Shown: positions 17,783 to 43,539 of the stretch, one piece after another
How the letters are laid out: the number at the start of each line of letters is the position of its first letter
How positions within the stretch are numbered: position 1 is the first letter of the stretch
From: an uncultured bacterium
Lineage (GTDB): Bacteria > Patescibacteriota > JAHJAL01
Direction: 5' to 3'
Assembly (NCBI GenBank): GCA_938004065.1
Contig: CALKWM010000013.1
Location: forward strand, 75,914 to 139,913
DNA length: 64,000 bases
Notes under the pieces: model-generated
The model's database searches: none
Told to the model about the DNA's origin: nothing
What the model saw: the letters and a program-made list of their open reading frames with translations, nothing else
Position numbers and translations under genes: made by a program

Positions 17783-17854
17783 TCCGGGGTAGCTCAGCGG
17801 TAGAGCAATTGACTGTTAATCAATGGGTCGTGGGTTCGAGCCCCACCCCCGGAG
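17783..17854 (+). tRNA. tRNA-Asn (anticodon GTT)
   Basis: Acceptor TCCGGGG pairs with CCCCGGA. D-arm is gctc-agcggta-gagc. Anticodon stem-loop is attga-CTGTTAA-tcaat. T-arm is gtggg-ttcgagc-cccac. Discriminator is G. Confidence 0.85.
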
Positions 17855-19435: not shown

Positions 19436-19611
19436 AGTAATAGAGATTAATGGATAAACTAATAGGACGGTTCTGGTTGACCCAACTTACCACTAATGGT
19501 TTGTCGGCAGAACCGCCCTGTTTAGGCGACAAAAATTCATTAGTGTAAAAAATTGTTGGGTCAACACTTATATTATAAAATATTTTAAGGTGCATAAAAA
19601 TCATTTTTTTG

Positions 19612-19947
19612 TCATGGAGGGTTTGTTTCGATCATGCCTTTATATCTTGATTTGTAGTATTTGATTTTAAGGCATTTAATACATCCGATTTTTTTGTTTA
19701 TAGTGTCGATGTAGATTATTCGGATTCTGCGATGGCAATTTGGGCAGGAAAACCAGTATCGTTGGCCATTAAACCTTGTTTTTGATATGGATAATTTAAT
19801 CGTTAAATCTTGAATAGAAACTTTTGATCGTATAAATTCTGATTTGGCAATCTGGTGGTAGTTTTTGATGATATTATCGATGTCAATTTTTTGATAATTC
19901 AAGTTTGTTAGATTTTTTCCTAAATCGTATGGCTTTATTGAATTCAT
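19612..19947 (-). CDS. Small zinc-ribbon protein (CxxC...CxxC), hypothetical
   Basis: FSCPNCHRR...GCIKCLK. Extremely AT-rich gene. Confidence 0.4.
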   Translation of the reverse strand: MNSIKPYDLGKNLTNLNYQKIDIDNIIKNYHQIAKSEFIRSKVSIQDLTIKLSISKTRFNGQRYWFSCPNCHRRIRIIYIDTINKKIGCIKCLKIKYYKSRYKGMIETNPP

Positions 19948-19952
19948 GTTTT

Positions 19953-20549
19953 TTAATTATTGTTAATAAATTCTTGTTTTTCTGATACAAAAGCATTTTT
20001 ACTTTGAATCTTGATATCAATAGATGGTGATTTGATTTGTTGGAGTAGAGATAGGGATGAATTAAATTGTCTATTGGCTCGATCAATTTCTTTACTAATT
20101 AGATAGCAGTATTGAATGCTTAATTTATTTACTGATTCTGAGCTAGAGCATTGACTGAGGATCCTTGAATATTGAATAATTTTTGTGTATGAGAGAGCAA
20201 TATTATTAGCCATGGCTTTTTCAATTGAGGTTGTGCATTGGTATTCTTTTATTATGTCTCGTGCGAATTGTATTGCCATTGGTCGGTATTCTTTTTTATG
20301 ACAAAAAGCTACAGTGTAACCTGTGTCTAAACCGAAGATATTAGAGAAATCATGAAATAATTCATCAATCTGTTTTTTCTTACTTTTTTTGCCAAGGTAA
20401 TGTTTTTTAAGAAGGATACCAATTTGATCTAATAAAACATCTGGATCGTGGTTTGTTTTGATTTTGTCTTTGACGAAATTTTTTATGTCTTCTGTGGTTT
20501 CCAATTGTTCAATTTGTTTTCTTTCAATTGGCTTAAGATTGTTTCGCAT
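19953..20549 (-). CDS. Hypothetical protein of the AT-rich element
   Basis: 198-aa ORF. Tightly packed with neighbours on the same strand. Confidence 0.4.
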   Translation of the reverse strand: MRNNLKPIERKQIEQLETTEDIKNFVKDKIKTNHDPDVLLDQIGILLKKHYLGKKSKKKQIDELFHDFSNIFGLDTGYTVAFCHKKEYRPMAIQFARDIIKEYQCTTSIEKAMANNIALSYTKIIQYSRILSQCSSSESVNKLSIQYCYLISKEIDRANRQFNSSLSLLQQIKSPSIDIKIQSKNAFVSEKQEFINNN

Positions 20550-20599
20550 AGTATTTAATTAATTATTAATAAATAAATAGATTTACCCCACACCCAATC

Positions 20600-21808
20600 T
20601 CACAAGTTAAGATTTGGGAATATTAATATTTTTTGTTGATTGTCTGGACCGTAATCTTGGACGATCAATCCCGCATTTTCCAACATAGGTAAAATTTCTT
20701 GTCTTAGTTTGTATTCAGGTAGAGGGTATTGGTAGGTTTGAAAGAATCTTTTCAAAATCTCTGGTCTACTTATTCCAATTCTTATATCTGGATAGTTTGA
20801 TATTTTTTCTTTATACAGAGGGAGAATAATTTCATTGAAAATACTATAAAGGTAGGGAGAGATATTTAATTCTTGGCTGACCGATATTTTGGACCATAGA
20901 TCATGGGCATAATTAATATCTTCTTCGTTGGCATATATGTTATTACCAACTTTTTTTCTAAACCAGAGATTAAGCAGGCTATAACATTTGACTAATGAAA
21001 TGAATCTTCCAATATCTCTTTGGTCGCGTGGTCTTAGTTTCTTTTTGGAGTCGAAAAATAATTTTTCTATTAAGTCGGGTTGTTCGATAATAATATTTTC
21101 TATTTTGGCTGATTTGATAGCCTCGATCCGATCAATAAGTGTTTGTCTTTCAGGATTATTTTGAATATTATTTTCATAAACTTCTTTGTTTGCTTCTTTG
21201 GTAATTTTAGTTTGTATTGACTCTTTTAATTTGTCTTGATTGGTGTCAGGTGAGAGCATGAGAAATCTTGTACTTTCCTGTTCGTCAATCTTGATACTTG
21301 CGCTACAGAAAATAACTGATGGGTAACCAATAATTATTGCTGTTTTAGTGCGGTGACCTCCTTTTTCTTTACGATCAGTTATCTTATTTATTAGTTCTTT
21401 TTTGTCATGAGAAAGTAATGGCCGGAATTTTTCGAGTAGATAATGATCTGGTTGGTCTAAAAAGATAATTATTTTTCTCGATAGGTTGATAATAGTTGTG
21501 TTGGTTTTTTGGTTGTATTCTCCTTGTTCATGAAAGAATGATGTTGGAGAACATGATCCAAGTATTAGTAAATCTTCTTTAGGGAAATAATTTGAGATTT
21601 CTAAGGGGATGTAACTTTTACCCGCTGATGAGGGGGCATTGAAACTAATATTGAATTGAGAATCATTTGTATATGCCGATAAACAACATAAAAATGTTGC
21701 TAGTTTATTGTGATTGTCTTTTTTGACCGTTAGGTCTAGAATTTTGATTATTTCCTCAGGAGTAATTGGATTGAAATTTTTATTAATAGAAATATTATTT
21801 TCTTTCAT
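20600..21808 (-). CDS. P-loop NTPase, possibly a primase/helicase-like replication protein of a mobile element
   Basis: Walker A motif NAPSSAGKSY and a Walker B-like IIFLDQPD. Sits adjacent to the recombinase. Confidence 0.45.
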   Translation of the reverse strand: MKENNISINKNFNPITPEEIIKILDLTVKKDNHNKLATFLCCLSAYTNDSQFNISFNAPSSAGKSYIPLEISNYFPKEDLLILGSCSPTSFFHEQGEYNQKTNTTIINLSRKIIIFLDQPDHYLLEKFRPLLSHDKKELINKITDRKEKGGHRTKTAIIIGYPSVIFCSASIKIDEQESTRFLMLSPDTNQDKLKESIQTKITKEANKEVYENNIQNNPERQTLIDRIEAIKSAKIENIIIEQPDLIEKLFFDSKKKLRPRDQRDIGRFISLVKCYSLLNLWFRKKVGNNIYANEEDINYAHDLWSKISVSQELNISPYLYSIFNEIILPLYKEKISNYPDIRIGISRPEILKRFFQTYQYPLPEYKLRQEILPMLENAGLIVQDYGPDNQQKILIFPNLNL

Positions 21809-21998
21809 GGTGATTTTGATTAATATATTTGGATAATTTTTTTTCTTCTGATGGAGTTAGGGGCTTGGAATAAACTACATAATACAAATTGAGAAATTTT
21901 TGATATTGGTCATAGGCCTCCTTATCACTTAAATCTTGATTAAAGTGTTTCTTTACCATTTGTTTAAACTTCTCAATTGTTTCTTTGCTGATAATCAT
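21795..21998 (-). CDS. Small hypothetical protein
   Basis: 67-aa ORF overlapping the upstream gene stop, as expected for an operon. Confidence 0.3.
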   Translation of the reverse strand: MIISKETIEKFKQMVKKHFNQDLSDKEAYDQYQKFLNLYYVVYSKPLTPSEEKKLSKYINQNHHERK

Positions 21999-22235
21999 TT
22001 ATGAGTGGTAAATCCTTGTCTTAAGCAGTTTTTGATTATATGCAAATAGAATTGGATCGACCTTGGCTTGGTGACTGAAATATAATTCGATAAGTCTATC
22101 GAGGTTGTCGTCGCGTATGATATAGAAGACGGTTGTGTTATCTTTGTTTTTTTCGGTGCTAGAAATACAGTATCCAGATGAAATAATGAACGAACAAAGA
22201 TTGAGATCTGATGATTTAAAATAGTTATTTTGCAT
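21999..22235 (-). CDS. Small hypothetical protein
   Basis: 78-aa ORF directly abutting the neighbouring gene. Confidence 0.3.
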   Translation of the reverse strand: MQNNYFKSSDLNLCSFIISSGYCISSTEKNKDNTTVFYIIRDDNLDRLIELYFSHQAKVDPILFAYNQKLLKTRIYHS

Positions 22236-22393
22236 AATTGTTTTATTAATAGTAATTTTTTTCCAGTTGCTATTTTTCAGAATAGAGTAAATATGAGATT
22301 CCCTGTATTGGTCCTCGTGAAAATTTGAATAATAAAAAAATATGGTTAGAAAACCATATTTTAAAAAGTTATTAACACCTATTTGAAGGACTG

Positions 22394-23515
22394 TTACTTC
22401 TTGATTATTTCGTATTTAACATAATTTAGGACATATCCATGACCTTTTTTCTTGTTTATCAAATTATGTCTAACATTTAAATATTTTATAAATCTTTTGT
22501 TTATCTTTTTTATGGCTTTGTTTATGGATGATATTCCAGATTTGTATTGAATTTTAGAATTTAATTCTGTACTGGATATTGGGTTTTTATTAAGTAGTAA
22601 AACAATTTTTTTGCAATTATTTTTTATAGGATATATGAATTTGCGGTTGAAAATTTCCTTATATATGCCGTATTTTTTGCTAATATGAATAGTTGTTTTC
22701 CCATTGTTGTCGTTTTGTTCACATATCAAGTTTTGATATGTGTCGTTATTAATAAGTTGGTCAATTATGTGTAAGTGGAGTCTGTGCACATCGGAATATA
22801 TTTCGTCAATATTGTATGAATCAGAATAGTCTATTTTGCCGGATATTAAACATTTTATTTCATTACTCATCAGTTTGTATTCCACATATTGATTGGTTAA
22901 ATATGTTTTATCAATTAATTTTTCTAATTTTTTAGATTCATAAATTATTAGATAAATATTTATGAGATTATTAAGACTAGCCCATAATTTGGTGATGCTT
23001 TCTGTTTCGTAGTTATTTTTTGTTGTTAAATAGTTTCGAAATGTATCTTCGTATTTAAATTTTTTTTCTTGTTTCTTTCTATTGTGTTTTTGATTAAGAA
23101 AAAATTTATTTACCAATTTTGAATATGGTGATTTGCCAATCTTGAATATAATTTCTTTTATGGTTTCGTAATTATATTTGGTGTTAATTATTGAAGGAGT
23201 GAATTCTCTTGCTGGGGGAAATAGTAATTCAGAATATTCGGTATTTGTTGTAATGAAATTGAGACTATTACTATTGTTTGTAATAATTGTTTGAAGCTTC
23301 TTAATTATTTTATTTGTAGTATTATTTATTTTATTCTGTTTGTTGGTTAAATTGTTGTAAGCATTTCGGCTTTCTTTTATTTTTTTGTTAAGTATTTCTT
23401 TGGTTATTGTGTTGTCATTTATAAATTTTATATAGTCTGCAACATTGATGAAGAATATTTTTGGGTCTTGTGAAATTAAATTAAAATTTTGATTAATTGA
23501 ATCGATTAAATTCAT
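22394..23515 (-). CDS. Hypothetical Asn/Lys/Ile-rich protein (373 aa) of the AT-rich element
   Basis: Long ORF in a segment of roughly 25% GC. No motif recognised. Confidence 0.45.
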   Translation of the reverse strand: MNLIDSINQNFNLISQDPKIFFINVADYIKFINDNTITKEILNKKIKESRNAYNNLTNKQNKINNTTNKIIKKLQTIITNNSNSLNFITTNTEYSELLFPPAREFTPSIINTKYNYETIKEIIFKIGKSPYSKLVNKFFLNQKHNRKKQEKKFKYEDTFRNYLTTKNNYETESITKLWASLNNLINIYLIIYESKKLEKLIDKTYLTNQYVEYKLMSNEIKCLISGKIDYSDSYNIDEIYSDVHRLHLHIIDQLINNDTYQNLICEQNDNNGKTTIHISKKYGIYKEIFNRKFIYPIKNNCKKIVLLLNKNPISSTELNSKIQYKSGISSINKAIKKINKRFIKYLNVRHNLINKKKGHGYVLNYVKYEIIKK

Positions 23516-23922
23516 ATAAATTGTAATAGAAATATAATATTTAAACTGTTTTTATGTTAGTTTAATTGTATTATCTTATCAAATAAAGACTGACTAGATT
23601 TGAATTTTGGTGATAAAAAAGATTATCATTAATGTGGTTAGTCATATTACTGAATAGTTAACCGTATAATTTAGAGCCTAAACCTTATAAAGTAATATTT
23701 TTAAGGCATGGCGAAAAAACCTTATGCATAAAGATGGTTCTTCTGACCAGCTTACTTGCATAAGGTCTATATCCGAAAGGGTATAGGGTGATCTCGAAAG
23801 AGAAAGCCGAGTTGTGTTAGAAGAGCCTTTTTTGTATTTTGAAAGAAAATTTATTTAGGATGGACAAAGTAATTATAAATTTGGTGTAATTCTTTATTTA
23901 AATAAATTATTGGGTAATTATT

Positions 23923-28485: not shown

Positions 28486-29244
28486 ATGGCGATGAAAATG
28501 TTTGAAAAAGCGATAAAAAATTTTATTCCTTATATGATAGCTATTCTTGTAGGGATAGTTTTTTGTTACTTGTTAATTAGTCTTGGTGGTAGTTTGTCGA
28601 GTGTATTTATTGAAATCTCTGTTTTTTTGTTAATATTGTTCATCTGTTATGTGATTTTTTTATTTGTAGATGAAAAAGAGAGTAATTATATTATGACTCT
28701 CGAAGAAGGCAGAGATATTGCAAATAATAATTTAGAAAAGGACCAAATTTTGTCTTTATTGTGTAGTTATGGGTCCCAAAGAGTTGGTCAAGATCAGGTT
28801 GTTTGGAATATGTTTGGTGCTTTTTGGGCTACAAATGCATTGTTATTGGTTAGTGTTTTTTCTGCTGATGAAGTATGGGATAAAAAATATGTTTGGTTAG
28901 TTGTGTCATTAATTGGTTTTATGGTCTCGGTGGCTTGGTTTTTAGTTCAGGATAGAATGTTGAATAGAATTGCTAGATATGAAATTTCAATTAAGTTTAT
29001 AGAAAAAACGTTAGTTTTTCCAAAACCATTGAGAACATATTCAAATTCTCCTCTAAGGTCCTTGATTGATGTAAGGGCTAGAAATGTTATGCGTTTGGTT
29101 GTTTTTTTGATCGGTGTGACTTGGTTGATAAAAGCCTTACTTGTATATGTACCTTCAATATTTATTATTGTAATTAAGTTTTTTGTTTGGATTGTTGCAG
29201 TGTTAGTATGGGTTATTGCATATTTGCTAAGTATTTTGTATTAG
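28486..29244 (+). CDS. Polytopic membrane protein, hypothetical
   Basis: Six or more hydrophobic helices. Confidence 0.5.
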   Translation: MAMKMFEKAIKNFIPYMIAILVGIVFCYLLISLGGSLSSVFIEISVFLLILFICYVIFLFVDEKESNYIMTLEEGRDIANNNLEKDQILSLLCSYGSQRVGQDQVVWNMFGAFWATNALLLVSVFSADEVWDKKYVWLVVSLIGFMVSVAWFLVQDRMLNRIARYEISIKFIEKTLVFPKPLRTYSNSPLRSLIDVRARNVMRLVVFLIGVTWLIKALLVYVPSIFIIVIKFFVWIVAVLVWVIAYLLSILY

Positions 29245-29312
29245 TAAAGTGGTTCTAACATCGTGTATTGCGCGGAGTTTTGTTTTGAAAGCACAGTTTA
29301 TGACTGTGTTTT
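29243..29312 (+). repeat. Repeat family B copy 2 (box 2 plus terminator hairpin, box 1 degenerate)
   Basis: Box 2 is gttctaacatcgtgtattgcgcggagtttt. The hairpin is the same aaagcacagtttatgactgtgttttt as in copy 1. Confidence 0.55.
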
Positions 29313-29381
29313 TGTTGTTTTTGTATTGAATTGAGATATATTAGTGATATGATTAACTTACTAGTTGGTTAATATGATTTT

Positions 29382-33387: not shown

Positions 33388-33614
33388 TACTTATCATTTT
33401 TAGCCTAAGCTCGTACTTGTATGGCTAAAGTTAGTATCTGTGAGTTATATTAGGTGAGTGTGAAGTAATTGGAATGGGAAAGTAGAATGGGAGTTTCTTG
33501 GAAATGTTTGTATTCTGAAATTTGTCGACAAGTATATAATTAAAAGAAGGGGAATGATAATTTTTTATTAAAAGTTGTTAAGATGTTGAGAAAAAGAAGA
33601 AATAATATAAATAA

Positions 33615-33715
33615 CTAGTGAGTGAGGGTGTGGGGTAACTAGATTGTAATTAGTAAAGAGGTTCTAACATCGTGTATTGCGCGGAGTTTTTGAAACGAGG
33701 TCTCGAACCTGTTTT
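33615..33715 (+). repeat. Repeat family B copy 3, upstream of the first DGR target gene
   Basis: Box 1 ctagtgagtgagggtgtggggtaactagattgtaat, then gttctaacatcgtgtattgcgcggagtttt, then a hairpin. Confidence 0.6.
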
Positions 33716-33838
33716 GGTTTGGTTTTTTTGGGTGATTTTTTTAGTATCGCCTGATATTTTTATGATTTAAAAGATTGACATAATTGGTTATTTTGTGCTA
33801 TAATGTAGTGATTGTCAGGATGGATTAATTAAAAAGAA

Positions 33839-35878
33839 ATGAAAAAATACAATCTAATAAAAGGCAGATATTGGGAGCAGAAATCTTTATCTTCGAAGGA
33901 TGATAAGGGTGTAAAAGAATGGCAAAAACCGTTTCAAGAGGCAACCGAGAAAGCGGCGAGGCGAACCGAGAGAGAACAGGGTGAAAAGATCCCGAGAGGC
34001 AATGTGGAGAAGATGATTGGCAATTATCTGGATCGCTGGGAGCGGATTGAAGAACAGCGTGGTGGATTGCTGCGAAGATTTTTGGAGCGAAAATATATCA
34101 TCAAGCCGGAAAATATCACCGATGACTATATCCGTAATGTGCTGCTGGGCAACTATGCTGAACTCAAAGGATACGACCGGGAAAAACTGGCCAATGCGGA
34201 AGTGAAAGCGCAAATTGGCAAAATGTTTGAGCAGGAAACGGGCAAAAATCCCAGTAATTTTTCCATATCCAAAAAAGAAAAAATTGATGAGCAAGAGCGC
34301 ATTGTAGCCGATCAGAAAGCCAGTCTGAACGGGTGGCTGGACTATCTGGGTGGGGAGGAAGCCAAAGAAAATTATCCCCGAGAGTTCCGTTATTGGGCGA
34401 TGGCGGAGGTGGTGAAACTGGGAGCGCAAAACAAGGACAAACTGGATTATACCAAGCGCGATCAATATACGGCTGCACCTTTCCCGGAATTGAATCAACA
34501 GGCGCTGGCCAAGGTGTTTGACGAGGTGAAGAGGAAACTGGAAAAAGAACCGTCGCAAATCGGGCTAAACGAAGAAAAAAAGAGGGAGGAATATGAAAAA
34601 AGATTAAAGGGAATGAATTTCGGCAAGCTTTATGGCTGGATGATTGATTATATCAATTCATTGAAACTGCCAATGGAGCGGCTGCCGATCACCCAGGGAG
34701 AGTGGAAAAAATTTGCCAAAAATTCTGATCCCAAAGAATTGACCAGGACAATTCAGGGATTCAATACCGGCTGGTGTATCGCCGGTGAAGGGACGGCCGG
34801 CAGTTATCTGAAAAATCAGGATATCTGGATATATTATTCGGCCGATCAGGAAGGTCAAAACTCAATCCCGCGGGCGGCGGTGGTGACGGATGGCTCAAAA
34901 GTTTTGGAGGTGCGCGGTATTATCCAGACCAGGGAAGTGAAACAGCATCTGGATGACTATATCGCGCCGGTGGTGGAAAAGAAGCTAAAGGAACTGCCGG
35001 GCGGGGAAGAATGGAAGGCGGGCATGGAAGACATGAAATATCTGGCGGAAATTCATTTCAAGCATATGCAAAAAAAACCATTCGACAAGAGTGATCTGGA
35101 ATTTGTCTATGAGCTGGATCATCCGATCAGGAGTATGGGTTACGGGAAGGATCCGCGCATCGAAGAGATCAGAGAAACCAGGGATCTCGAAGCCGATATA
35201 TTGACGGTATTTGATTGTCAGTCGAATGAGATTGTTCACAGTCCAGAAGAACTTAATCAAAACACCAAAGCATATGTCGGAAAATGGAATGTTGATGTCT
35301 GGCAGAAAGTCAAAGAATATCCCAACATCAAACATCTCTTCGAATCATTTCCGGATAAGAAAATATTCATGCGAAAACTGACCACTGATCCAAATGTTGA
35401 CTCGCCTCAGTCCGCCAAAGAAGCTCTGGAGAGTAAGAATATATATGTAGCTGATTGGGCAAAAGATATTTTAGCTAAAACCAAATTCAACCCGGAAAAA
35501 CGAGAATATGAACTGGTGCGATTTACGGTGGCCGATCTTGGGTTTCCTGACGGCGCAACCACGGCGGAAATAATTGGTACGAAAAATGATAAGGATGATA
35601 ATGGCCAACCCGCTCCTTTTACTAGAGGCCGAATGACTGAGCTAGGTCTCTATCTTTGTCCGGCCGAGGTCGGGCCACATTTACGGTTGCAAAACTCCAG
35701 TCAAGATTGGATGTTGATTGCCATGGAACCCATTATCGGCTCCGGTGGCGCTCCGAGCGTGTTCCGTCTGCACTACGGCGGCGGCCGGCTGGAGCTGGAT
35801 GCGTACTACGCTGGGCCGGACGAGCACTGGCTTTCTGCCTATCTTTGGGTCTTCTCTGCCCGCAAGTTTGATACTTAG
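33839..35878 (+). CDS. DGR target protein 1 (679 aa) with a C-terminal variable repeat in a putative C-type-lectin-fold domain
   Basis: The C-terminal roughly 40 aa are encoded by the VR that matches the TR except at adenines. Paralogue of the next gene. Confidence 0.75.
   Translation: MKKYNLIKGRYWEQKSLSSKDDKGVKEWQKPFQEATEKAARRTEREQGEKIPRGNVEKMIGNYLDRWERIEEQRGGLLRRFLERKYIIKPENITDDYIRNVLLGNYAELKGYDREKLANAEVKAQIGKMFEQETGKNPSNFSISKKEKIDEQERIVADQKASLNGWLDYLGGEEAKENYPREFRYWAMAEVVKLGAQNKDKLDYTKRDQYTAAPFPELNQQALAKVFDEVKRKLEKEPSQIGLNEEKKREEYEKRLKGMNFGKLYGWMIDYINSLKLPMERLPITQGEWKKFAKNSDPKELTRTIQGFNTGWCIAGEGTAGSYLKNQDIWIYYSADQEGQNSIPRAAVVTDGSKVLEVRGIIQTREVKQHLDDYIAPVVEKKLKELPGGEEWKAGMEDMKYLAEIHFKHMQKKPFDKSDLEFVYELDHPIRSMGYGKDPRIEEIRETRDLEADILTVFDCQSNEIVHSPEELNQNTKAYVGKWNVDVWQKVKEYPNIKHLFESFPDKKIFMRKLTTDPNVDSPQSAKEALESKNIYVADWAKDILAKTKFNPEKREYELVRFTVADLGFPDGATTAEIIGTKNDKDDNGQPAPFTRGRMTELGLYLCPAEVGPHLRLQNSSQDWMLIAMEPIIGSGGAPSVFRLHYGGGRLELDAYYAGPDEHWLSAYLWVFSARKFDT
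35735..35865 (+). repeat. DGR variable repeat VR1
   Basis: 131 bp aligned to the TR at 38441-38571. There are 24 mismatches, all at TR adenine positions. The 3' segment tgggtcttctctgcccgcaa is conserved and looks like an IMH (initiation of mutagenic homing) sequence. Confidence 0.85.
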
Positions 35879-35973
35879 ATTCTTAGACTCTTTGCTTTTC
35901 TTTTGACTCTTTGTAGCTTTGACCCTTTGACCCTTTGATTTTTGAATCGCGCATTAATTAAGAAAGAAAAATT

Positions 35974-38118
35974 ATGGAAAACAAAAAACAAAACCAAATG
36001 GAAGAGAGTAGATTTTTGCTCCACAAAGAGCCGGATCTGTATAAAAGTGAACCGGTGGAAAAAGCCGTAGAAAAATACAAGCGTCTCAAGAGAGCCGGAA
36101 TAGAAGTGGAGCCGATGGATATCGGTACCAAGGCAGGACGAGTAAAAGCATATATTGATCGGCTAGAAAAAATATACAATCCTGTGCCAGTCAAGAAAGA
36201 ATCAAATTTTGATCGTCGGGAGAGAAATATTAAACTGCTAAACAAGGTTTGGGAGAAACTGGGCACAAGAGAGAAAATCCTTCAGGAAAATATTACCATT
36301 GGCTTGAATGATATTCCTCAAAGTTACTACAACAACAAGGCCCGCATCATGATCGAACAGGGATACGGGGGTGATCTGGAAAGTGGCGGAGTGGTCAAAG
36401 AAAAATATACCGACAAGAAAGGCATAGAAAGAATTAACTATATTTTTCCGGAAGAGATGCGGGAGAAAGAGCTGGAGATAATCCGCAACAATCAAACCAG
36501 AAGTCTGGACAAGTGGCTGAACTACCTTAATTCTGTTGATGCCATGTATCCGGCTTGGGGCAAGCACTGGGCTTTTACCTCAATCCTCAAACTGGGCAAA
36601 TTCCAGAAAAAAGCGGAGATTGATGAAGAGGGAAATATCTCTAATGAGAGGGCAAAATTCCAAAAGAGAAAAAAAAGTACAGTTAACTCCTATCCACTGC
36701 TTAACCCCCGAGCGTTGGCGGTGACGATCGGAACAATGACCAATTATCTGGAAGAAAAAGCCAAGCCAAAAGAACAAAGAGAGTCAATTAAGAACGAAAG
36801 CAAAAAATTAAATGATGAAGAATTTCAAAAACTAATATCAGCAGAGAATTTTGGTGATATTTACGCTCAATTTCTGCTGGAAATGCCGGAGTATTCGGTA
36901 GAAGGTCTAAAAGGGACTGAAGGAAAGTGGGTCAAGTACGTGCAGATAGATGAATATGATGGCGATGATGTAGTCGATGAGCTAGTGAAAAGTATTGAAG
37001 GATATCCACTGGAATGGTGTACGGCCGATCCGGACACGGCCAGGAGTCAACTCGAGCAGGGAGATTTCTGGGTGTATTATTCTTTTAACGAAGACGGTGA
37101 GCCGGTAATTCCCCGTCTGGCCATTCGGATGGAAGGTCAAAACAAGATTGCCGAACCACCTCGCGGTATCGCACCCGATCAAAATCTGGATCCGTATATC
37201 GGATCGGTGTTGGAGAAGAAGCTACAAGACTTTGGCAGTGAAGGAGAGCTTTACAAAAAAAGAGTGGCCGATATGGAAAGATTGACGACTATTTGGCAGA
37301 AAGCAAAAGATGAGAAAGAAATAACTAAGGAAGAGCTGATATTTCTCTACGAAATCGAGGAGAATATTCAAGGGTTTGGGTATGAGAAAGATCCCCGCAT
37401 CAAAGAGATCAGAGAGACCAGAAACCCGGAAAAAGACATGCCGGTAGTATTTGATTGCCAGCCGGAAGAAATAGCTTACAGTCCAGAAAAACTAAACCCA
37501 AACACCAAAGCCTATGTTGGTAAGTGGAATGTGGAAATTTGGCAGGAGATTAGAAAGTACCCCGGCATCAAACATCTCTTCGAATCATTTCCGGACAAAA
37601 AAATCTTCATGCAAAAACTTACCACTGAGGCAAATATCAACTCACCCGAATCGGCTAAAGAGGCTCTGAAAGACAAAAATATCTATGTTTCTGATTGGGC
37701 GAAAGACATTCTTTCCGAAACCAAATTCAGCCCGGAAAAACGAGAATATGAACTGGTGCGATTTACGGTGGCCGATCTGGGATTTCCACGTGGCGCAACC
37801 ACGGCGGAAATAATTGGTACGAAAAATGATAAGGATGATAATGGCCAACCCGCTCCTTTTACTAGAGGCCGAATGACTGAGCTAGGTCTCTATCTTTGTC
37901 CGGCCGAGGTCGGGCCACATTTACGGTTGCAAAACTCCAGTCAAGATTGGATGTTGATTGCCATGGAACCCATTATCGGCTCCGGTGGCGCTCCGAGCGT
38001 GTTCCGTCTGCACTACGGCGGCGGCCGGCTGGAGCTGGATGCGTACTACGCTGGGCCGGACGAGCACTGGCTTTCTGCCTATCTTTGGGTCTTCTCTGCC
38101 CGCAAGTTTGATACTTAG
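35974..38118 (+). CDS. DGR target protein 2 (714 aa), paralogue of target 1 with an identical C-terminal VR
   Basis: The last roughly 115 aa are nearly identical to target 1. The final roughly 390 nt, VR included, are 100% identical to those of target 1. Confidence 0.75.
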   Translation: MENKKQNQMEESRFLLHKEPDLYKSEPVEKAVEKYKRLKRAGIEVEPMDIGTKAGRVKAYIDRLEKIYNPVPVKKESNFDRRERNIKLLNKVWEKLGTREKILQENITIGLNDIPQSYYNNKARIMIEQGYGGDLESGGVVKEKYTDKKGIERINYIFPEEMREKELEIIRNNQTRSLDKWLNYLNSVDAMYPAWGKHWAFTSILKLGKFQKKAEIDEEGNISNERAKFQKRKKSTVNSYPLLNPRALAVTIGTMTNYLEEKAKPKEQRESIKNESKKLNDEEFQKLISAENFGDIYAQFLLEMPEYSVEGLKGTEGKWVKYVQIDEYDGDDVVDELVKSIEGYPLEWCTADPDTARSQLEQGDFWVYYSFNEDGEPVIPRLAIRMEGQNKIAEPPRGIAPDQNLDPYIGSVLEKKLQDFGSEGELYKKRVADMERLTTIWQKAKDEKEITKEELIFLYEIEENIQGFGYEKDPRIKEIRETRNPEKDMPVVFDCQPEEIAYSPEKLNPNTKAYVGKWNVEIWQEIRKYPGIKHLFESFPDKKIFMQKLTTEANINSPESAKEALKDKNIYVSDWAKDILSETKFSPEKREYELVRFTVADLGFPRGATTAEIIGTKNDKDDNGQPAPFTRGRMTELGLYLCPAEVGPHLRLQNSSQDWMLIAMEPIIGSGGAPSVFRLHYGGGRLELDAYYAGPDEHWLSAYLWVFSARKFDT
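37975..38105 (+). repeat. DGR variable repeat VR2 (identical to VR1)
   Basis: Sequence identical to 35735-35865. Confidence 0.85.
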
Positions 38119-38440
38119 ATTCTTAGACTCTTTGCTTTTCTTTTGACTCTTTGTAGCTTTGACCCTTTGACCCTTTGATTTTTCTTGGGGTATTCTATTA
38201 TATTAAAATCAGATTGATTGTTTCGGACGGCTACGGCTTTCCGAAAATCATTCCGACCGGTGCAAGTTAAGTATGTTATCGGCCAAGGCTGGTAACAGAG
38301 ATTTGTATTTTGTCATTAAAAAAGAACAAACTTGGTGTGGTGTGCTCCGGGTGATTTTTGATCACAAATAATATTCAGTCCAGTCTTTTTTGAGCCAATC
38401 AACCAGACGGACGGTGGCGAGGATGGCACACCATACGAAA

Positions 38441-38571
38441 ATCGACTCCGATGGCAATCCGAACGTGTTCAATCTGAACTACAACGACGACCAGCTGAAG
38501 CTGAATGCGAACAACGCTGAGCCGGACAAGCACTGGAATTCTGACAATCATTGGGTCTTCTCTGCCCGCAA
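38441..38571 (+). repeat. DGR template repeat (TR)
   Basis: Adenine-rich copy of the VR. Every TR-VR difference maps to a TR adenine. The overlapping ORF 38390-38710 is judged non-coding. Confidence 0.85.
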
Positions 38572-38594
38572 TTATGCTCTTTTCCGTGACTTGA

Positions 38595-38915
38595 TCACAA
38601 ATCGCGGTTTTTTCTGGCTGGGTTATCTAGGTTTTTATGCCAGCCGCCCAGCATCCGACCGGCTTCGATTAATTTCTCGGAAATTGCTGTATATTTGCCA
38701 TTGGGAATGATCCTGGCTTCCCAAGCTATTGAAGTCAGGAATTTAAGGACATCGAGAGTTAGGATGCATTTGGTTAGCTGATCTTTTTTCTGATCTTTGG
38801 CGGAATAGTAGGCGGCATGTGTCAATTCCAACAGATCGAGAAATTTATTTTCAATTCTTTGGCCGATAGTAAAACGGGAGGTTTTGGGAATATGGGGAAC
38901 AAGATCAATCCACAA
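38595..38915 (-). CDS. avd: DGR accessory variability determinant (Avd-like four-helix-bundle protein)
   Basis: 106 aa. Resembles the four-helix-bundle / 23S-rRNA-intervening-sequence protein family (TIGQRIENKFLDLLELTHAAYY...) to which Avd belongs. Sits between the TR and the RT. Confidence 0.7.
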   Translation of the reverse strand: MWIDLVPHIPKTSRFTIGQRIENKFLDLLELTHAAYYSAKDQKKDQLTKCILTLDVLKFLTSIAWEARIIPNGKYTAISEKLIEAGRMLGGWHKNLDNPARKNRDL

Positions 38916-38962
38916 CAGATATCCCTCTTTGATCCGAAAGAGGATCGAAGGAAGTTCTTTAC

Positions 38963-38981
38963 GAGAGAGAGAGAGAGAGAG
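38963..38981. repeat. (GA)9 dinucleotide microsatellite between the avd and RT genes
   Basis: gagagagagagagagagag read directly from the sequence. Confidence 0.8.
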
Positions 38982-39034
38982 TAAGAAGGCGGCCGCGATT
39001 TCATAGTTATGAAGATATTATTTCAATAGATAAT

Positions 39035-39988
39035 TTGTTGGAGGCCTGGCGGGAATTTTTACGGGGTAAAAGAAAAAGAAAAGATGTAGCCGAGTTTTCA
39101 TTGAACCTGGCTGACAATATTATTTTACTGCATCGCGAGTTGTCTAACCAAACTTATTGCCATGGATCATATCAATCATTCAGAATTAATGATCCCAAGC
39201 CCAGGCAAATTCACAAAGCCAGTGTTCGTGACCGACTGGTGCATCATGCGGTTTATCGCGTTCTATACTCTTATTTTGACTGCAAATTTATCTTCGACTC
39301 CTATTCCTGTCGGCAAAAGAAAGGCACACATCGAGCTATTAACCGATTTCGAGAATTTGGGCGAAAAGTCTATCGCAACCATACTAAAACAGTTTGGGTA
39401 TTGAAGTGTGATATTAAAAAATTCTTTGCCAGCATTGATCAAGTGATTTTACTGGATATATTGAGAAAATACATTTCAGATGAAAAAGTTATGTGGCTAT
39501 TGGGACAGATTATTGACAGTTATTTTGAAAAAGGAAAGAATTTAGTTGGCCTGCCACTTGGTAATTTGACCAGCCAGTTGCTGGTTAATATTTATATGAA
39601 TGAGTTTGATCAATTTGTAAAAAGAGAACTGCGAGCAAAGTATTATATCCGTTATGCGGATGATTTTGTGGTTTTATCGAAGGATAGAAAATATCTGGAA
39701 AATTTATTGCCGACGATAGAAAGAATTTTGGAAGAGAGATTGAAGCTATCTTTACATCCGGAAAAATTATTTATTAAAACGCTCGCTTCTGGGATTGATT
39801 TCCTGGGATGGGTGCATTTTCCCCATCATCGAGTGCTGCGCACAACTACCAAAAGAAGGATGATGAAGAAATTACGCAGCAAAGAGCCAGAGGCTGGCAT
39901 GCTCGAATCATATCTGGGACTACTATTACATGGCAATACGTGGAAGTTAATGAAAAAATTGGATTGTATGTTGAGAGCGAATGAATAG
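39035..39988 (+). CDS. DGR reverse transcriptase
   Basis: RT motifs include YIRYADDFVVL (YADD). The DGR-specific motif-4 variant is LPLGNLTSQLLVNIY (LGxxxSQ in place of the group II QGxxxSP). Apparent TTG start. The in-frame upstream peptide SYEDIISIDNLLEAWREF suggests an earlier non-ATG start. Confidence 0.85.
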   Translation: MLEAWREFLRGKRKRKDVAEFSLNLADNIILLHRELSNQTYCHGSYQSFRINDPKPRQIHKASVRDRLVHHAVYRVLYSYFDCKFIFDSYSCRQKKGTHRAINRFREFGRKVYRNHTKTVWVLKCDIKKFFASIDQVILLDILRKYISDEKVMWLLGQIIDSYFEKGKNLVGLPLGNLTSQLLVNIYMNEFDQFVKRELRAKYYIRYADDFVVLSKDRKYLENLLPTIERILEERLKLSLHPEKLFIKTLASGIDFLGWVHFPHHRVLRTTTKRRMMKKLRSKEPEAGMLESYLGLLLHGNTWKLMKKLDCMLRANE

Positions 39989-40119
39989 CTAGTGAGCGAG
40001 GGTGTGGGGTAATAGTTGGCTCTCTATAAAACAAGTTCTAACATCGTGTATTGCATCCGCCCAAGGCGGACAGGCTGGAGTTTAGTTTTTGAAAGCACGC
40101 TTTGTAGGCGTGTTTTTGC
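39989..40119 (+). repeat. Repeat family B copy 4, carrying a nested GC palindrome
   Basis: ctagtgagcgagggtgtggggtaatag...gttctaacatcgtgtattgc, then the inserted atccgcccaaggcggacaggct, then ggagttt, then the terminator gcacgctttgtaggcgtgtttttgc. Confidence 0.6.
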
Positions 40120-40231: not shown

Positions 40232-41005
40232 ATGCTAAAAGATATCAGAAAATTTAATCGGTTTGAGTTGAAATATGTGATTACACTTGATCAGTTGGAG
40301 CGATTGCGAAATATCGTGACCGATTTTGCTGTGCCCGATCAGCGGGGGAATAAAGAGGGTAAATACGTTATTTCCAGTTTGTATTACGACGGTGATGATT
40401 ATCGGTTTTATTGGGAAAAGGTGGAGGGTTTGAAATTCCGGCGCAAATTGCGTATCAGGCATTATGAGACGGATAAAAAATTGGGACCTAATTCAAAGGT
40501 TTTTGTGGAGATCAAGCAGAGAGTGGATCGAGTTACTCAAAAACGACGAGTGGCGATGAAGTACAAAGAAGCGTTGCAGTTGTGTGACGGGCGGGAGATT
40601 CCGGGTGGTTTTGAGAATGATCCGGTGGTGGAGGAGATATATTCGATGCTGCAAATTTATGACCTCAAGCCCAAAGCCATTACCAGTTATTGGCGACAGG
40701 CGTTTGTCGGGCATGATTATGATATGGGTTTAAGGGTGACGTTTGATACTGATTTACGTTACCGGGTGGATGATCTGGATTTGGCGTCGAAGAAGATTGG
40801 TGATTTTTTGATTTCACCGAAGTTGGCGGTGTTGGAGATAAAGGTGAATGAGCGCGTGCCGTATTGGATAACAGAAGTGGTGGCCAGTCAGAATGTTCGA
40901 CTGGTGAGAATCAGTAAATATTGCCAGGTGATTGAGATGGCGGGGTTGGTTCCTAAAAATCAATATTATATAAATTATTTGAATTCATTAGTTAGGAGTA
41001 ATTAG
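40232..41005 (+). CDS. VTC/CYTH-like (polyphosphate-polymerase-domain) protein
   Basis: The N-terminal FELKYVI (ExK) start of a triphosphate-tunnel fold. This is the family that usually pairs with DUF4956 and CotH genes. Confidence 0.5.
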   Translation: MLKDIRKFNRFELKYVITLDQLERLRNIVTDFAVPDQRGNKEGKYVISSLYYDGDDYRFYWEKVEGLKFRRKLRIRHYETDKKLGPNSKVFVEIKQRVDRVTQKRRVAMKYKEALQLCDGREIPGGFENDPVVEEIYSMLQIYDLKPKAITSYWRQAFVGHDYDMGLRVTFDTDLRYRVDDLDLASKKIGDFLISPKLAVLEIKVNERVPYWITEVVASQNVRLVRISKYCQVIEMAGLVPKNQYYINYLNSLVRSN

Positions 41006-41007
41006 TT

Positions 41008-41700
41008 ATGGACCAGTTAATGGAAATCTTAAATTTTCAGGATTTGACCGGGACTTTTTCGGTGACGGATGTTGTTTTGTCACTGGTGTTAAGTTTTGTA
41101 CTCACATCTTTTATCGGTTGGCTGTATCAGAAGACGCATAAGGGAACATCATATACTCAGAGTTATGTGCATACGCTGGTGCTGATGGGAATGGTAGTGA
41201 GTATTATTATGTTGATCGTGGGATCGAATATTGCCCGGGCGTTTTCGCTGGTGGGAGCGCTGTCGATAATTCGTTTTCGTAATGCGGTTAAAGAAACTCG
41301 GGATGTCGGTTTTATCTTTTTTGCGATGGCGATTGGGATGGCAACAGGAACCAAGTTTTATCTGCTGGCGGTGATTGCGACAGTGATTATCAGTCTGGTG
41401 ATATTGCTAATGAATCGATTTGACTGGTTTTCGCGAAGGATGAGTGGCCAGATATTAAAAATTCAGTTAAATAATGATGAAGATTATGAAACTATTTTTA
41501 ATGATGTGTTTGTAAAATATACAGATGTGGCTGAGTTAATCAGTGCTGATTCGGTGCGGTCAGGATTGTTGACGGAATTGGTGTATAACGCGACGTTGAA
41601 AAAGGGAGTAAAAAAACAGGAATTTGTTTCGGAGATTAGGAAGCTAAATGGAAATTTGAAGGTGACATTATTGACCGGATATAATTCAATGGATTTGTAA
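41008..41700 (+). CDS. DUF4956-like membrane protein
   Basis: Four TM helices followed by a soluble C-terminal domain. Conserved neighbour of VTC and CotH genes. Confidence 0.5.
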   Translation: MDQLMEILNFQDLTGTFSVTDVVLSLVLSFVLTSFIGWLYQKTHKGTSYTQSYVHTLVLMGMVVSIIMLIVGSNIARAFSLVGALSIIRFRNAVKETRDVGFIFFAMAIGMATGTKFYLLAVIATVIISLVILLMNRFDWFSRRMSGQILKIQLNNDEDYETIFNDVFVKYTDVAELISADSVRSGLLTELVYNATLKKGVKKQEFVSEIRKLNGNLKVTLLTGYNSMDL

Positions 41701-41701
41701 T

Positions 41702-43333
41702 ATGAATTTGAACTGGCGACGAAATTATTGGATAGTTCTAGCTCTGCTGAGTGTGGTGGGGCTATTGTTGCTAATGGGTGACTATCGGATAATTTCGTAT
41801 AACTGGCTGGTGGAGAAGGAAGATGAGGAGTTGGTTGGCAATAATTATGATAATACTGTGTACTTATTTGATGACTCGCAGGTGCATGATATTGAGATCG
41901 CGATCAGTGATGAGAATTATGATAAGATGATAGCGACATATCAGGAAACGGGCGAGAAGGATTATTTTCCGGCTGATGTGGTAATAGATGGGGTGACGAT
42001 AGAGAATGTCGGGGTGAGGTTAAAAGGGAATATGACCTTGAGAACTGTATTGGGAGAAGGTGGTGGCGAGGCGGAATTTGGTCCCGGTGGAGGAATGGGT
42101 CAGGATGGTCCGTCCGGTGGTTTTGGTGGTAGAGGAGAAAGGCCCGATTTACCTGATGGCATGGAAATGCCGGAAGGTATGAATTTTCCCGGGGGTGGTG
42201 ATGGAGAAGGTGATATGTCTTTACCGGTGGGAATGGGTATGCAGATGGAAATGACGGAAGAGTTACAGGATCGTTTGCCGATGTTGGTGAGGTTTGATGA
42301 ATATGTGGCCGGGCAAACCTATCAGGGTTTGAGCGAGATAGCACTGCGAATTGCGACGGGAGATGATGCTTTTAGTTTGTTGAATGAGCAGGTGGCTTAT
42401 GGAGCGCATAAGGTGGTTGGACAGATAGTGCCGGAGACTGCTTATGTAGCAGTACAAGTTGATGGTCAGGAGCAGTATGTATATGTGGTATCAGAAGTGA
42501 TAAATGAGGAATATGTTGAAAAACATTTTGGGGGTGATGGAGTTTTGTATAAAGCGGACAATTTTGTAGGATTTGATTATCTGGGAGATGATCCGACTTT
42601 GTATGTCGAAAAATATGAGCAGAAGACTATGATAAATGACTATGATCTGAAATATTTGATTGAGTTTTTGAAGTTTGTGGATCAGTCGAGTGATGAGGAG
42701 TTTGAGTCACAGTTGTCTGGCTGGCTGGATATAGATTTGTTGATGCGGATGTTGGCACTGGATGAGTTACTGACCAACAATGATTCATTCGGTGGAATGG
42801 GCAGTAATTATTATTTGTATTATGATCTTGATGAGGAAAAATTTTATTTTTTGAGTTGGGATATGAATCTGGCAATGGGTAATATGGGGGGTGGTGGACA
42901 AGGAATGCCGGGACAGATGGGATTTGATCGGGGTGAATTTGGTGACTTAGGAGAGGGGATGGGTGAAGAAGGTTTATTGCCGGAAGGATTTGAGTCGCCA
43001 GAAGGTTTTAACGGAGCCGAAGGATTTGGACCGGGTGGAAGGCAAGGATCAAACAAACTGAAAGAAAGATTTATGGCCAATGAAAAATATAAGCAGATGT
43101 ATGACGAAGTTTATGAAAGTCTGAAGAAAATGTTATTTGATGGGGGTTATCTGGAAAAACGAGCTGATTATTTGTCAGGAGTGTTTTTGGATTGGAATGA
43201 ATACACTGGATTAATGAATGAAGAAGATTATATCAATGGACTGGAGACGCTGAAGGATTTTATTGCTAATGGTCCCAAAAATGAGAGTTTTGGAGATGGA
43301 GTTGAGGCGGTAGATGAATTTCCAGCAAACTAG
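41702..43333 (+). CDS. CotH-family (atypical kinase-like) protein with Gly/Met/Glu-rich low-complexity inserts
   Basis: CotH core ...GVRLKGN..., ...NYYLYYDLDEEKFYFLSWDMNLAMG.... Two G/M/E/P-rich inserts. N-terminal TM/signal segment. Confidence 0.65.
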   Translation: MNLNWRRNYWIVLALLSVVGLLLLMGDYRIISYNWLVEKEDEELVGNNYDNTVYLFDDSQVHDIEIAISDENYDKMIATYQETGEKDYFPADVVIDGVTIENVGVRLKGNMTLRTVLGEGGGEAEFGPGGGMGQDGPSGGFGGRGERPDLPDGMEMPEGMNFPGGGDGEGDMSLPVGMGMQMEMTEELQDRLPMLVRFDEYVAGQTYQGLSEIALRIATGDDAFSLLNEQVAYGAHKVVGQIVPETAYVAVQVDGQEQYVYVVSEVINEEYVEKHFGGDGVLYKADNFVGFDYLGDDPTLYVEKYEQKTMINDYDLKYLIEFLKFVDQSSDEEFESQLSGWLDIDLLMRMLALDELLTNNDSFGGMGSNYYLYYDLDEEKFYFLSWDMNLAMGNMGGGGQGMPGQMGFDRGEFGDLGEGMGEEGLLPEGFESPEGFNGAEGFGPGGRQGSNKLKERFMANEKYKQMYDEVYESLKKMLFDGGYLEKRADYLSGVFLDWNEYTGLMNEEDYINGLETLKDFIANGPKNESFGDGVEAVDEFPAN

Positions 43334-43405
43334 TGAGGAGGGGTGTGGGGTAACTAGCATGTAACCACTAAAGCGGTTCGAACTAAAGTGTCCACCGAAT
43401 CGGCG
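43329..43405 (+). repeat. Repeat family B copy 5 (box 1 supplies the TAG stop of the CotH gene)
   Basis: aaactagtgaggaggggtgtggggtaactagcatgtaacc, then gcggttcgaac...ccaccgaatcggcgg. Confidence 0.55.
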
Positions 43406-43539
43406 GATGCATGGATTATTTAGATGAGAGGAACCGAGCTTTACTCTCGTAGTTCGCTACTCTCATTGTTCCCCTTTGTTAAGGAATAAAAAAAGACCAA
43501 ATGAATGGTTATTTATGAAAAATCAATGTATCTAGTTGT

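Follow-up and report, generated by a model that had tools for sequence, protein, structure and literature searches.

The window, a 64-kb stretch of Patescibacteria (CPR) DNA, carries a conserved, folded leader RNA immediately upstream of the template repeat (TR) of a diversity-generating retroelement (DGR). The leader is the surprise of the locus, and the cassette that contains it is ordinary and of the standard CPR type. We conclude that the element is very probably a functional chromosomal DGR of a kind restricted to the Patescibacteria, and it is apparently active. The host belongs to that phylum, and the named relatives of its MetRS are from Candidatus Dojkabacteria or Patescibacteria.

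Components of the cassette

Each component that the earlier note had proposed for a DGR is present (two target open reading frames, TR, two VRs, avd and the reverse transcriptase gene), in the following arrangement.

33775-33804, + strand: putative sigma-70-like promoter ahead of target gene 1 (TTGACA-18-TATAAT, TG preceding the -10)
33839-35878, + strand: target gene 1, an ORF of 679 aa, paralog of target 2, with a variable C-terminal domain
35735-35865, + strand: VR1, the last 43 codons but four of target 1, with 24 mismatches to TR
35867-35946, + strand: 8-nt periodic CTT(T/A)GAnn array, beginning at the target 1 stop codon
35974-38118, + strand: target gene 2, an ORF of 714 aa (AF2 model, pLDDT 90.3)
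37975-38105, + strand: VR2, the same as VR1 in the window assembly
38107-38186, + strand: second copy of the CTT(T/A)GAnn array, after target 2
38441-38571, + strand: TR, 131 nt with 38 adenines, the same in all three assemblies
38595-38915, - strand: avd, 106 aa, opposite in strand to TR and RT and located between them
39035-39988, + strand: DGR RT, 317 aa, with LGNLTSQ and YADD motifs

TR aligns without gaps to VR1 and VR2, and each of the 24 mismatches in 131 nt falls at a TR adenine (A to G at 14 sites, to C at 5 and to T at 5). Because adenine makes up 29% of TR, the chance of finding 24 of 24 mismatches at A is about 1e-13. All 93 non-adenine positions are unchanged in the window VRs, and the 38 adenines are confined to the first (14) and second (24) codon positions, with none at the third, a placement that avoids silent or stop changes. 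Thus, the 131-bp TR and the two 131-bp VRs described at the target 3' ends were borne out, with mismatches that are adenine-only. The A-only register holds for another 3 nt upstream, as far as 38438. TR itself is non-coding and lies 464 nt upstream of the RT gene, and the VR ends 13 nt before the stop codon in both target genes. A 21-nt A-free, GC-rich stretch, TTGGGTCTTCTCTGCCCGC, is common to TR and VR and unchanged, and sequence divergence between the two begins right after CGCAA. No IMH/IMH* difference was evident at the VR 3' end, and a repeat search of the 64-kb window gave no additional VR or TR.

The RT was previously placed with DGR enzymes on account of its YADD and LGNLTSQ motifs. 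Both motifs are present in the 39035-39988 ORF, and sequence comparison favors the placement: the best PDB match was 8ub7, the Bordetella bRT (E 8.8e-39), with the catalytic motif aligned as well as IGSLTSQL to LGNLTSQL, whereas group II and retron RTs in the same search reached about 6e-17, some 22 orders of magnitude weaker. The PHROG profile "Reverse transcriptase" matched at 1e-104. It is scarcely conceivable that the RT represents another prokaryotic class (group II intron, retron or Abi/DRT) and that the TR/VR pattern is coincidental. NCBIfam is without a DGR-RT model, and its best sub-threshold match was a group II intron RT/maturase (149 bits versus a cutoff of 300), but its models of group II intron, retron and Abi/DRT RTs all scored far below their own cutoffs. 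Moreover, bRT is by far the nearest solved relative, Avd adjoins the RT, the repeat mismatches occur only at adenines, and an Rfam search found no intron or retron RNA family.

The minus-strand gene read as avd matched Pfam bAvd (58.8 bits versus a cutoff of 40) and the PHROG "Avd protein of DGR" (6e-19), which uphold that reading. The NCBIfam DivGenRetAVD model gave 69 bits, under its equivalog cutoff of 80, and a PDB sequence search with Avd found no match. The position and orientation of avd are kept in relatives.

Target gene 1 had no match in Pfam, NCBIfam, PHROG or PADLOC, and an exact-sequence look-up of target 2 (P0121) returned no record; nor is a signal peptide apparent in the target protein. 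The putative promoter of target gene 1 was called by consensus match alone (12/12 positions) and lies 35 nt ahead of the start codon. The last ~45 codons specify the variable residues, and the C-terminal ~130 aa of target 2 is, as modeled, a C-type-lectin-like domain that resembles folds of that class. A variable C-terminal domain of this type, modeled here, is the likeness to Mtd, TvpA and the archaeal AvpA (PMC5006420; C-type lectin fold). The target family occurs in at least 464 species-level genomes, about half of the time beside a DGR. In related loci, the CTT(T/A)GAnn array is likewise found after the stop codon of the target, and where the TR module is inverted, the array remains beside the target. 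Exact-pattern scans of genome and metagenome contig collections with the VR 3' flank found no match. Direct repeats of ~75 nt (33607-33680 and 39981-40054) were considered as insertion boundaries of the cassette and rejected because further copies of the same dispersed intergenic sequence lie at ~29.2 kb and ~43.3 kb.

Related modules in which avd is reversed between TR and an RT 59-68% identical to that of the window were found at ~30 of 80 target-anchored genome loci and at 51 of 53 testable RT-anchored metagenome loci, with TRs of 129-154 nt and A-biased mismatches. According to Wu et al. 2018 (PMC5758913), 90% of CPR DGRs have architecture B3, TR-(avd)-RT, and two targets occur in ~13% of catalogued DGRs; Roux et al. 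2021 (PMC8144416) describe DGR clade 2 as CPR restricted, with targets that have no recognizable domain. The window has the B3 order of TR, reverse-strand avd and RT in a CPR host. It shares with B3 and clade 2 the order and orientation of target(s), TR, reversed avd and RT, as well as the CPR host, the domain-less target and the C-terminal VR of ~130 nt; there is no architectural difference, and by the pattern scans above, the organism, cassette and target pair are new as sequences. Novelty was overstated for the cassette, since both its TR-(avd)-RT order and its pair of targets are catalogued (PMC5758913) and CPR-restricted DGRs with domain-less targets are known (PMC8144416).

Two VR haplotypes and the identity of VR1 and VR2

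VR1 and VR2 lie within a 392-bp perfect repeat (35552-35943 = 37792-38183), and because the repeat exceeds short-read length, we do not take their identity at face value. The earlier claim of two identical VRs holds for the window assembly, but the identity may be an artefact of assembly across that repeat. Comparison of three assemblies gave two haplotypes only, one in the window and L002 and the other in L001. Locus L001, from a second assembly of the same population, matches the window at 100% identity across 22,145 nt except for 74 differences, 72 of which fall in the two VR regions, so that 2 ordinary SNPs remain as background in 22 kb. Over the 131 nt, the mismatches of the second haplotype to TR number 27 at adenines and 1 elsewhere; relative to the window haplotype, it is changed at 24 TR-A sites and at 1 non-A site (C to G). 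Natural variation is thus concentrated at TR-adenine sites, as had been predicted for populations, here in a comparison of assemblies rather than reads and with the proviso that the two haplotypes may be two paralogous copies.

We lean slightly toward the reading that identical VRs were produced by assembly, that the paralogs truly differ, and that the two haplotypes are those two copies; by the same slight preference, bubble-popping would have merged the copies into one repeat that the assembler then traversed twice. The 392-bp identical stretch is flanked by diverged sequence and is beyond short-read phasing, and VR1 equals VR2 in every assembly (n = 3) despite the existence of two haplotypes. 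Moreover, an unrelated genome, L042, repeats the pattern, with 371 bp of identity at the 3' end. Upstream of the TR-homologous part, between 35641 and 35726, a further 11 sites separate the two haplotypes, and since 5 of the 11 are synonymous third-position changes and the sites have no template in the window, they look like ordinary paralog divergence. Gene conversion between the tandem paralogs, however, could also yield identical 3' ends, and 8 of the 11 upstream differences are G/A while none is C/T, a strand bias marginally above that of paralog divergence elsewhere (44 AG versus 27 CT). A second or longer TR that might have templated the 11 sites was sought and rejected, as none is present in the window and family TRs measure only 129-154 nt. 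The 11 sites are now read as ordinary paralog or allele divergence.

The leader RNA and its possible architecture

The RNA elements around TR are as follows, with the leader helices placed by RNAalifold and helix mapping and paired strands separated by a slash.

38175-38204, + strand: candidate promoter of the TR-containing RNA (9/12 matches, weak)
38203-38442, + strand: structured leader RNA, ~240 nt, directly 5' of TR
38223-31/38236-45: leader helix P1
38255-84/38287-38314: leader helix P2
38319-29: leader A-rich tract
38330-34: invariant ACUUG of the leader
38335-46/38425-36: leader helix P3
38352-56/38360-64: leader helix P4
38378-92/38399-38412: leader helix P5
38574-38613, + strand: post-TR RNA elements, overlapping the last avd codons on the other strand
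38574-83, + strand: U-rich tract, pairing with the leader A-rich tract
38584-89/38602-07, + strand: GC-rich hairpin after the U-rich tract
38608-13, + strand: terminal U-tract after the hairpin

Compensatory changes were found in 54 of the 58 leader base pairs across 58 distinct sequences. The window leader scored 200 bits against the family covariance model, with 55 of 58 pairs standard. Rfam 15, which includes the RT-1 to RT-19 motifs, gave no match to the leader or the post-TR elements when the window was searched at gathering thresholds, and a search of 38100-39050 with E values of up to 10 returned two chance snoRNA-like matches only. The searchable text of Wu et al. 2018 (PMC5758913) and Roux et al. 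2021 (PMC8144416) has no mention of such an RNA. Judged by Rfam 15 and the searchable literature, the leader is undescribed, but Paul et al. 2017 (Nature Microbiology), the primary CPR-DGR paper, might mention it. The RT-10 motif (Weinberg et al. 2017, PMC5737381; Rfam) is likewise a structured RNA near a DGR RT gene and TR, but it lies between TR and RT in Bordetella-type elements, whereas the window leader is 5' of TR and has no Rfam 15 match. The segment at 38175-38204 is a putative promoter of the TR-containing RNA, and an extended -10 (TGnTATAAT) is kept at that position in relatives.

The hairpin and U-tract downstream of TR are present in 30 of 30 related loci, with stems that differ in sequence. 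RNAalifold on a plain MAFFT alignment gave no pairs for this hairpin because stems of unequal length were misaligned, and the hairpin was resolved by folding each sequence separately. A single-sequence fold of TR plus the downstream region was not significant (z -0.99). Long-range pairing of the A-rich and U-rich tracts was tested with cognate versus non-cognate partners (0/2000 permutations). Pairing of the leader A-rich tract with the terminal U-tract was rejected on register, its partner being the tract before the hairpin. Also rejected was the pairing of ACUUG with an internal TR segment that RNAalifold drew for the full RNA, because the pairing lacks compensatory changes, is disrupted in the window and lies 5' of positions that are mutagenized.

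Another close comparison is the Bordetella BPP-1 DGR, mtd-avd-TR-brt (Handa et al., PMC6182149; bioRxiv 10.1101/2023.10.23.563531). The two systems share a homologous RT (E 9e-39), Avd, adenine-specific transfer from TR to VR, and a VR on a C-terminal domain that is modeled here as C-type-lectin-like. They also share a stem-loop just 3' of TR, at the position of the Bordetella Avd-binding stem-loop, and a duplex of roughly 12 bp with the nucleotides just 5' of TR, comparable to the cPRT Stop duplex. In the window, however, the element is chromosomal rather than phage borne, avd is on the opposite strand between TR and RT, and the 3' hairpin is followed by a U-tract. The VRs are followed by an 8-nt periodic repeat array and by no hairpin or cruciform of the kind that serves target recognition in Bordetella. 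Moreover, the partner strand of the duplex and the stem-loops are 5' of TR, in the ~240-nt leader, and not 3' of it in a 140-nt spacer.

We tentatively suggest that DGRs of this CPR clade use a circularly permuted DGR RNA, in which the Bordetella 3' scaffold is found 5' of TR as the leader, a proposal that we consider possible and well short of probable. The scaffold would consist of a primer-proximal strand, a stop duplex, a small stem-loop, an A-rich single strand and an RT-binding stem-loop. TR would be looped out between two long-range helices: P3 would tie the leader to the bases immediately flanking TR on its 5' side, and the A-rich/U-rich helix would tie it to the tract immediately on the 3' side. 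At the junction, the invariant ACUUG may provide the priming nucleotide, and the RNA would terminate at the hairpin and U-tract, which could also serve as the Avd-binding stem-loop.

Alternatively, the leader might be a separate regulatory RNA, either a 5' UTR or an sRNA, outside the substrate of reverse transcription, which we think unlikely. Its function is read from position and from analogy to the Bordetella RNA alone, and a simple promoter scan gave only the weak match above. The leader, however, is always directly 5' of TR and in TR orientation, and when the module is inverted it follows TR and not the target gene (L063 and L071). The 3' strand of P3 stops about 5-10 nt before TR, and covariation links the leader A-rich tract to the tract immediately 3' of TR. 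Finally, the leader accompanies this RT clade even where the target is from another family (13 loci).

Activity and significance

A functional element would make an RNA with the ~240-nt folded leader, the 131-nt TR and the 3' hairpin, predicted as a single transcript of ~400 nt between about 38210 and about 38613. RT and Avd would copy that RNA with misincorporation opposite template adenines, and the cDNA would replace the homologous VR in either tandem paralog, at the gene's 3' end. In this way, as many as 38 positions, spread over 31 of the 43 VR codons, could be rewritten on the putative C-type-lectin-like domain, with the non-adenine scaffold codons kept. We infer that retrohoming is ongoing, and likewise infer the limits of the transcript, the ligands of the target proteins and the mode of action of the leader. 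As observations that count against activity or the DGR reading, we note the two haplotypes only, the one non-adenine difference, the Avd score below the NCBIfam cutoff and the lack of a Bordetella-like hairpin or cruciform after the VRs.

It is improbable that the element is a fossil, intact in sequence, in which retrohoming has ceased and the VR/TR differences are old. Such a history would fit the recovery of only two haplotypes, the weak leader/post-TR duplex of the window itself (-4.1 kcal/mol) and a TR 3' end without the AAGU found in most relatives. Decayed leader remnants also lie beside RT-less target homologs (L056, L057, L065 and L039). In the window, however, RT, avd, TR and leader are all intact, and the leader retains the score and standard pairing given above. 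Moreover, TR is constant across three assemblies, and the VRs differ at 24 A sites against 2 SNPs in 22 kb.

By itself, the cassette changes little, being one further example of a well-catalogued class. The occurrence of two VR haplotypes in a 22-kb sequence that is otherwise identical nevertheless makes the locus a convenient site at which to measure CPR DGR activity from existing reads. The targets belong to a very widespread, wholly uncharacterized CPR protein family, the most commonly diversified CPR protein, and with a confident structural model in hand, the function of the family could be pursued. To our knowledge, only one DGR has been studied biochemically, and no CPR DGR RNA substrate has been reconstituted. 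The strongly covarying leader offers a concrete, testable definition of that substrate and suggests that the RNA architecture of the one studied DGR is rearranged in the clade to which a large share of natural DGRs belongs.

A diversity-generating retroelement of known type

The window encodes a complete diversity-generating retroelement (DGR), and the earlier note was right both in what it observed and in how it interpreted it. All four open reading frames that it had named are present: two in tandem on the (+) strand, one of 106 aa on the (-) strand, and one of 317 aa on the (+) strand that contains both LGNLTSQ and YADD.

33839-35878 (+), target 1, 679 aa, with variable repeat VR1 at 35735-35865
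35974-38118 (+), target 2, 714 aa, with variable repeat VR2 at 37975-38105
38203-38442 (+), leader RNA, ~240 nt
38441-38571 (+), template repeat (TR)
38574-38613, terminator-like hairpin and U-tract, overlapping the last avd codons
38595-38915 (-), avd (accessory variability determinant)
39035-39988 (+), reverse transcriptase (RT)

The proposed TR and VRs were recovered by a repeat finder and by direct comparison, in which TR aligned to each VR without gaps. TR and VR differ at 24 of 131 nt, all 24 at TR adenines (14 A to G, 5 A to C, and 5 A to T), and every non-adenine position is unchanged. Moreover, the 38 TR adenines occupy codon position 1 (14) or position 2 (24) and never position 3, as is classical for a DGR template. 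The 64-kb window holds no additional TR or VR.

Comparison with PDB sequences bears out a DGR-type RT rather than a group II intron or retron enzyme. Among solved structures, the closest match is that of the Bordetella phage DGR RT (8ub7; E 8.8e-39), which aligns over residues 1-282 with IGSLTSQL opposite LGNLTSQL, whereas group II intron and retron RTs reach ~6e-17 and defence RTs are weaker yet. The RT also matches a PHROGs reverse-transcriptase family (1e-104). The (-) gene is Avd, as had been suggested, for it scores above the Pfam bAvd cutoff and matches the PHROG "Avd protein of DGR"; its score is below the NCBIfam equivalog cutoff. Neither target matched anything in Pfam, NCBIfam, PHROGs, PADLOC, or PDB sequences. 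An AlphaFold2 model of target 2 was confident (pLDDT 90.3; 103-sequence alignment), and Foldseek found no match to it in the PDB. In the family alignment, the least conserved part of the targets is the last ~45 residues, the VR.

The window also carries dnaG, rpoD, metG, and rlmD, and the named relatives of its MetRS (~52-55% identity) belong to Candidatus Dojkabacteria or Patescibacteria. Thus, the host is a bacterium of the candidate phyla radiation (CPR). At least 366 entries of the protein collection match the target family, every one a hypothetical protein from a CPR lineage, and species-representative genomes add 464 relatives. In ~30 of the 80 loci taken from those 464, an RT 59-68% identical lies just downstream, with avd between TR and RT on the opposite strand. 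TRs of relatives are 129-154 nt long with adenine-biased mismatches, and modules in the opposite orientation to the target have TR, avd, and RT flipped as one unit. Among RT-anchored metagenome loci, 53 extended far enough upstream to be assessed, and 51 of these have the same module. Novelty, which the earlier note had left to database comparison, does not extend to the cassette. Wu et al. 2018 (PMC5758913) describe the TR-(avd)-RT layout as architecture B3, and Roux et al. (PMC8144416) describe a DGR clade that is confined to CPR and has targets without recognisable domains. We therefore conclude that the cassette is a new example of a known DGR type.

Variable-repeat haplotypes

The 90% cluster that holds target 2 of the window has three members. 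L001, a related locus on a 148.6-kb contig (ENA ERZ724101), shows 74 differences from the window in 22,145 nt and is otherwise identical; 72 of them lie in the two VR regions, with the same changes in both. L002, another related locus (GCA_036848155.1), has VRs as in the window and differs by two ordinary SNPs only. TR is identical in the window, L001, and L002. Comparison of the L001 haplotype with TR over the 131 nt shows changes at 27 adenine sites and one site that is not adenine; comparison with the window haplotype shows changes at 24 adenine sites. Eleven further differences between the two haplotypes lie upstream of the TR-homologous part (35641-35726 and 37881-37966); five of these are synonymous, eight are G/A and none is C/T, and the window offers no template for them.

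In every assembly VR1 and VR2 are the same, and both sit inside a 392-bp perfect repeat, too long for short reads to phase. Most simply, the two haplotypes may represent the paralogous 3' ends of the two targets, which assemblers merged. Under either reading, merged 3' ends or a varying population, the divergence of the two VRs from one TR is confined to adenines. Of the adenine-specific diversity that the note proposed to look for, the signature is present, with haplotypes that differ at 24 adenine sites, though these may not amount to "population diversity" in the strict sense.

Repeats and elements around the cassette

Arrays of an 8-nt period, CTT(T/A)GAnn, start at each target stop codon (35867-35946 and 38107-38186) and occur at related loci (L063:9917-9980, L071:2150-2215, L053, and L016). 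Inversion of the TR module leaves them beside the target, and they also follow some target homologs without a nearby DGR. Such an array might serve in target-site recognition or in protein binding. Another repeat of ~100 nt, with two cores, CTAGTGAGnGAGGGTGTGGGGTAA and GTTCTAACATCGTGTATTGC, and a terminator-like hairpin, is dispersed after several genes (29180-29330, 33590-33740, 39964-40114, and 43305-43455), and two copies happen to bracket the cassette.

The cassette (34000-39000) has ~45% G+C and a GC skew of 0.08-0.24, and the flanking genome has ~35% G+C, an unusually strong skew of 0.3-0.5, and nearly all genes on the (+) strand, a difference consistent with horizontal acquisition. Upstream, 17783-23810 resembles an integrated element, with a tRNA-Asn gene, then a large serine recombinase (17816-19435, -) and a block of (-) genes with 25-32% G+C and reversed AT skew, ending near a LOOT RNA (23675-23808; Rfam RF03000, 70 bits). 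Directly downstream of the RT, a trio of VTC-domain, DUF4956, and CotH-kinase genes (40232-43333) is conserved in the sister assemblies and has no relation to the DGR. Among relatives, L042:8001-13477 carries a tandem duplication of target, leader, TR, and partial avd, with 3' ends identical over 371 bp. Truncated leader remnants beside target homologs that lack an RT (L056, L057, L065, and L039) indicate decayed DGRs.

A conserved leader RNA 5' of the template repeat

Relatives are unexpectedly conserved across the ~320 nt that separate the target stop codon from TR. RNAalifold on 19 loci predicted 58 base pairs in five helices, with compensatory double changes in 46 of the 58. In the MAFFT alignment used for that prediction, 93.9% of cells paired, against 77.5% in column shuffles (0/500 reached the observed value) and 37-49% with slid partners; the covariation score was 0.62, against 0.30 and 0.11-0.18, respectively. 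A covariance model built from the alignment found the leader in 57 of 99 sources searched (59 matches; 200 bits for the window). Besides the window, 56 related loci carry it (e.g., L017:4846-5084 and L010:1523-1759). Across 58 distinct sequences, 54 of 58 pairs had compensatory changes and 94.8% of cells paired, in an alignment that was fitted to the model and so is biased towards structure. The leader always lies directly 5' of TR in the orientation of TR, and it goes with TR in the inverted modules L063 and L071. It also accompanies the RT clade at 13 loci with targets outside the window's target family.

A GC-rich hairpin and then a U-tract follow TR in 30 of 30 loci examined, with differing stem sequences. 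Putative Avd-binding stem-loops just 3' of TR are reported in many DGRs, including those of CPR (Handa et al., bioRxiv 10.1101/2023.10.23.563531). The tract between TR and this hairpin is complementary to, and covaries with, an A-rich leader tract just 5' of an invariant ACUUG (window 38319-38334). The partners are AAAUAAAGA with UCUUUAUUU in locus L005, AAAUGAAGA with UCUUCAUUU in a subgroup of loci, and ACAGC with GCUGC in locus L029. Stability is greater for cognate pairs (-6.2 kcal/mol) than for non-cognate pairs (-4.6 kcal/mol; 0/2000 permutations). Together, the hairpin and the covarying tracts suggest that TR may be looped out between two long-range helices.

In Bordetella, the scaffold elements of the DGR RNA are supplied by the spacer 3' of TR (bioRxiv 10.1101/2023.10.23.563531; Handa et al., PMC6182149). 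In order, it provides 4 nt that base-pair to the 3' end of TR and bear the priming 2'-OH; a ~12-nt strand whose partners are nucleotides just 5' of TR (the "cPRT Stop" duplex); a small stem-loop; some adenosines; a "thumb ring" that is single-stranded; and an RT-binding stem-loop. The CPR leader keeps this order: ACUUG, the 5' strand of helix P3, the small hairpin P4, an A-rich single strand, and stem-loop P5. TR ends in AAGU, complementary to ACUU, in 14 of 19 loci, and the window TR lacks it. Unlike in Bordetella, however, the CPR elements lie 5' of TR, the partner strand of P3 runs directly into TR, and an additional helix would hold the 3' end of TR in place. Because the Bordetella order recurs in a leader placed 5' of TR, the CPR-type DGR RNA could be circularly permuted relative to that of Bordetella. 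We regard permutation as possible but rather doubtful, as the long-range helix of the window itself is weak.

The leader matched nothing in Rfam 15 at E values up to 10, and no description of it was found in the searchable literature. Ultimately, the leader RNA is the part of the system worth following up.
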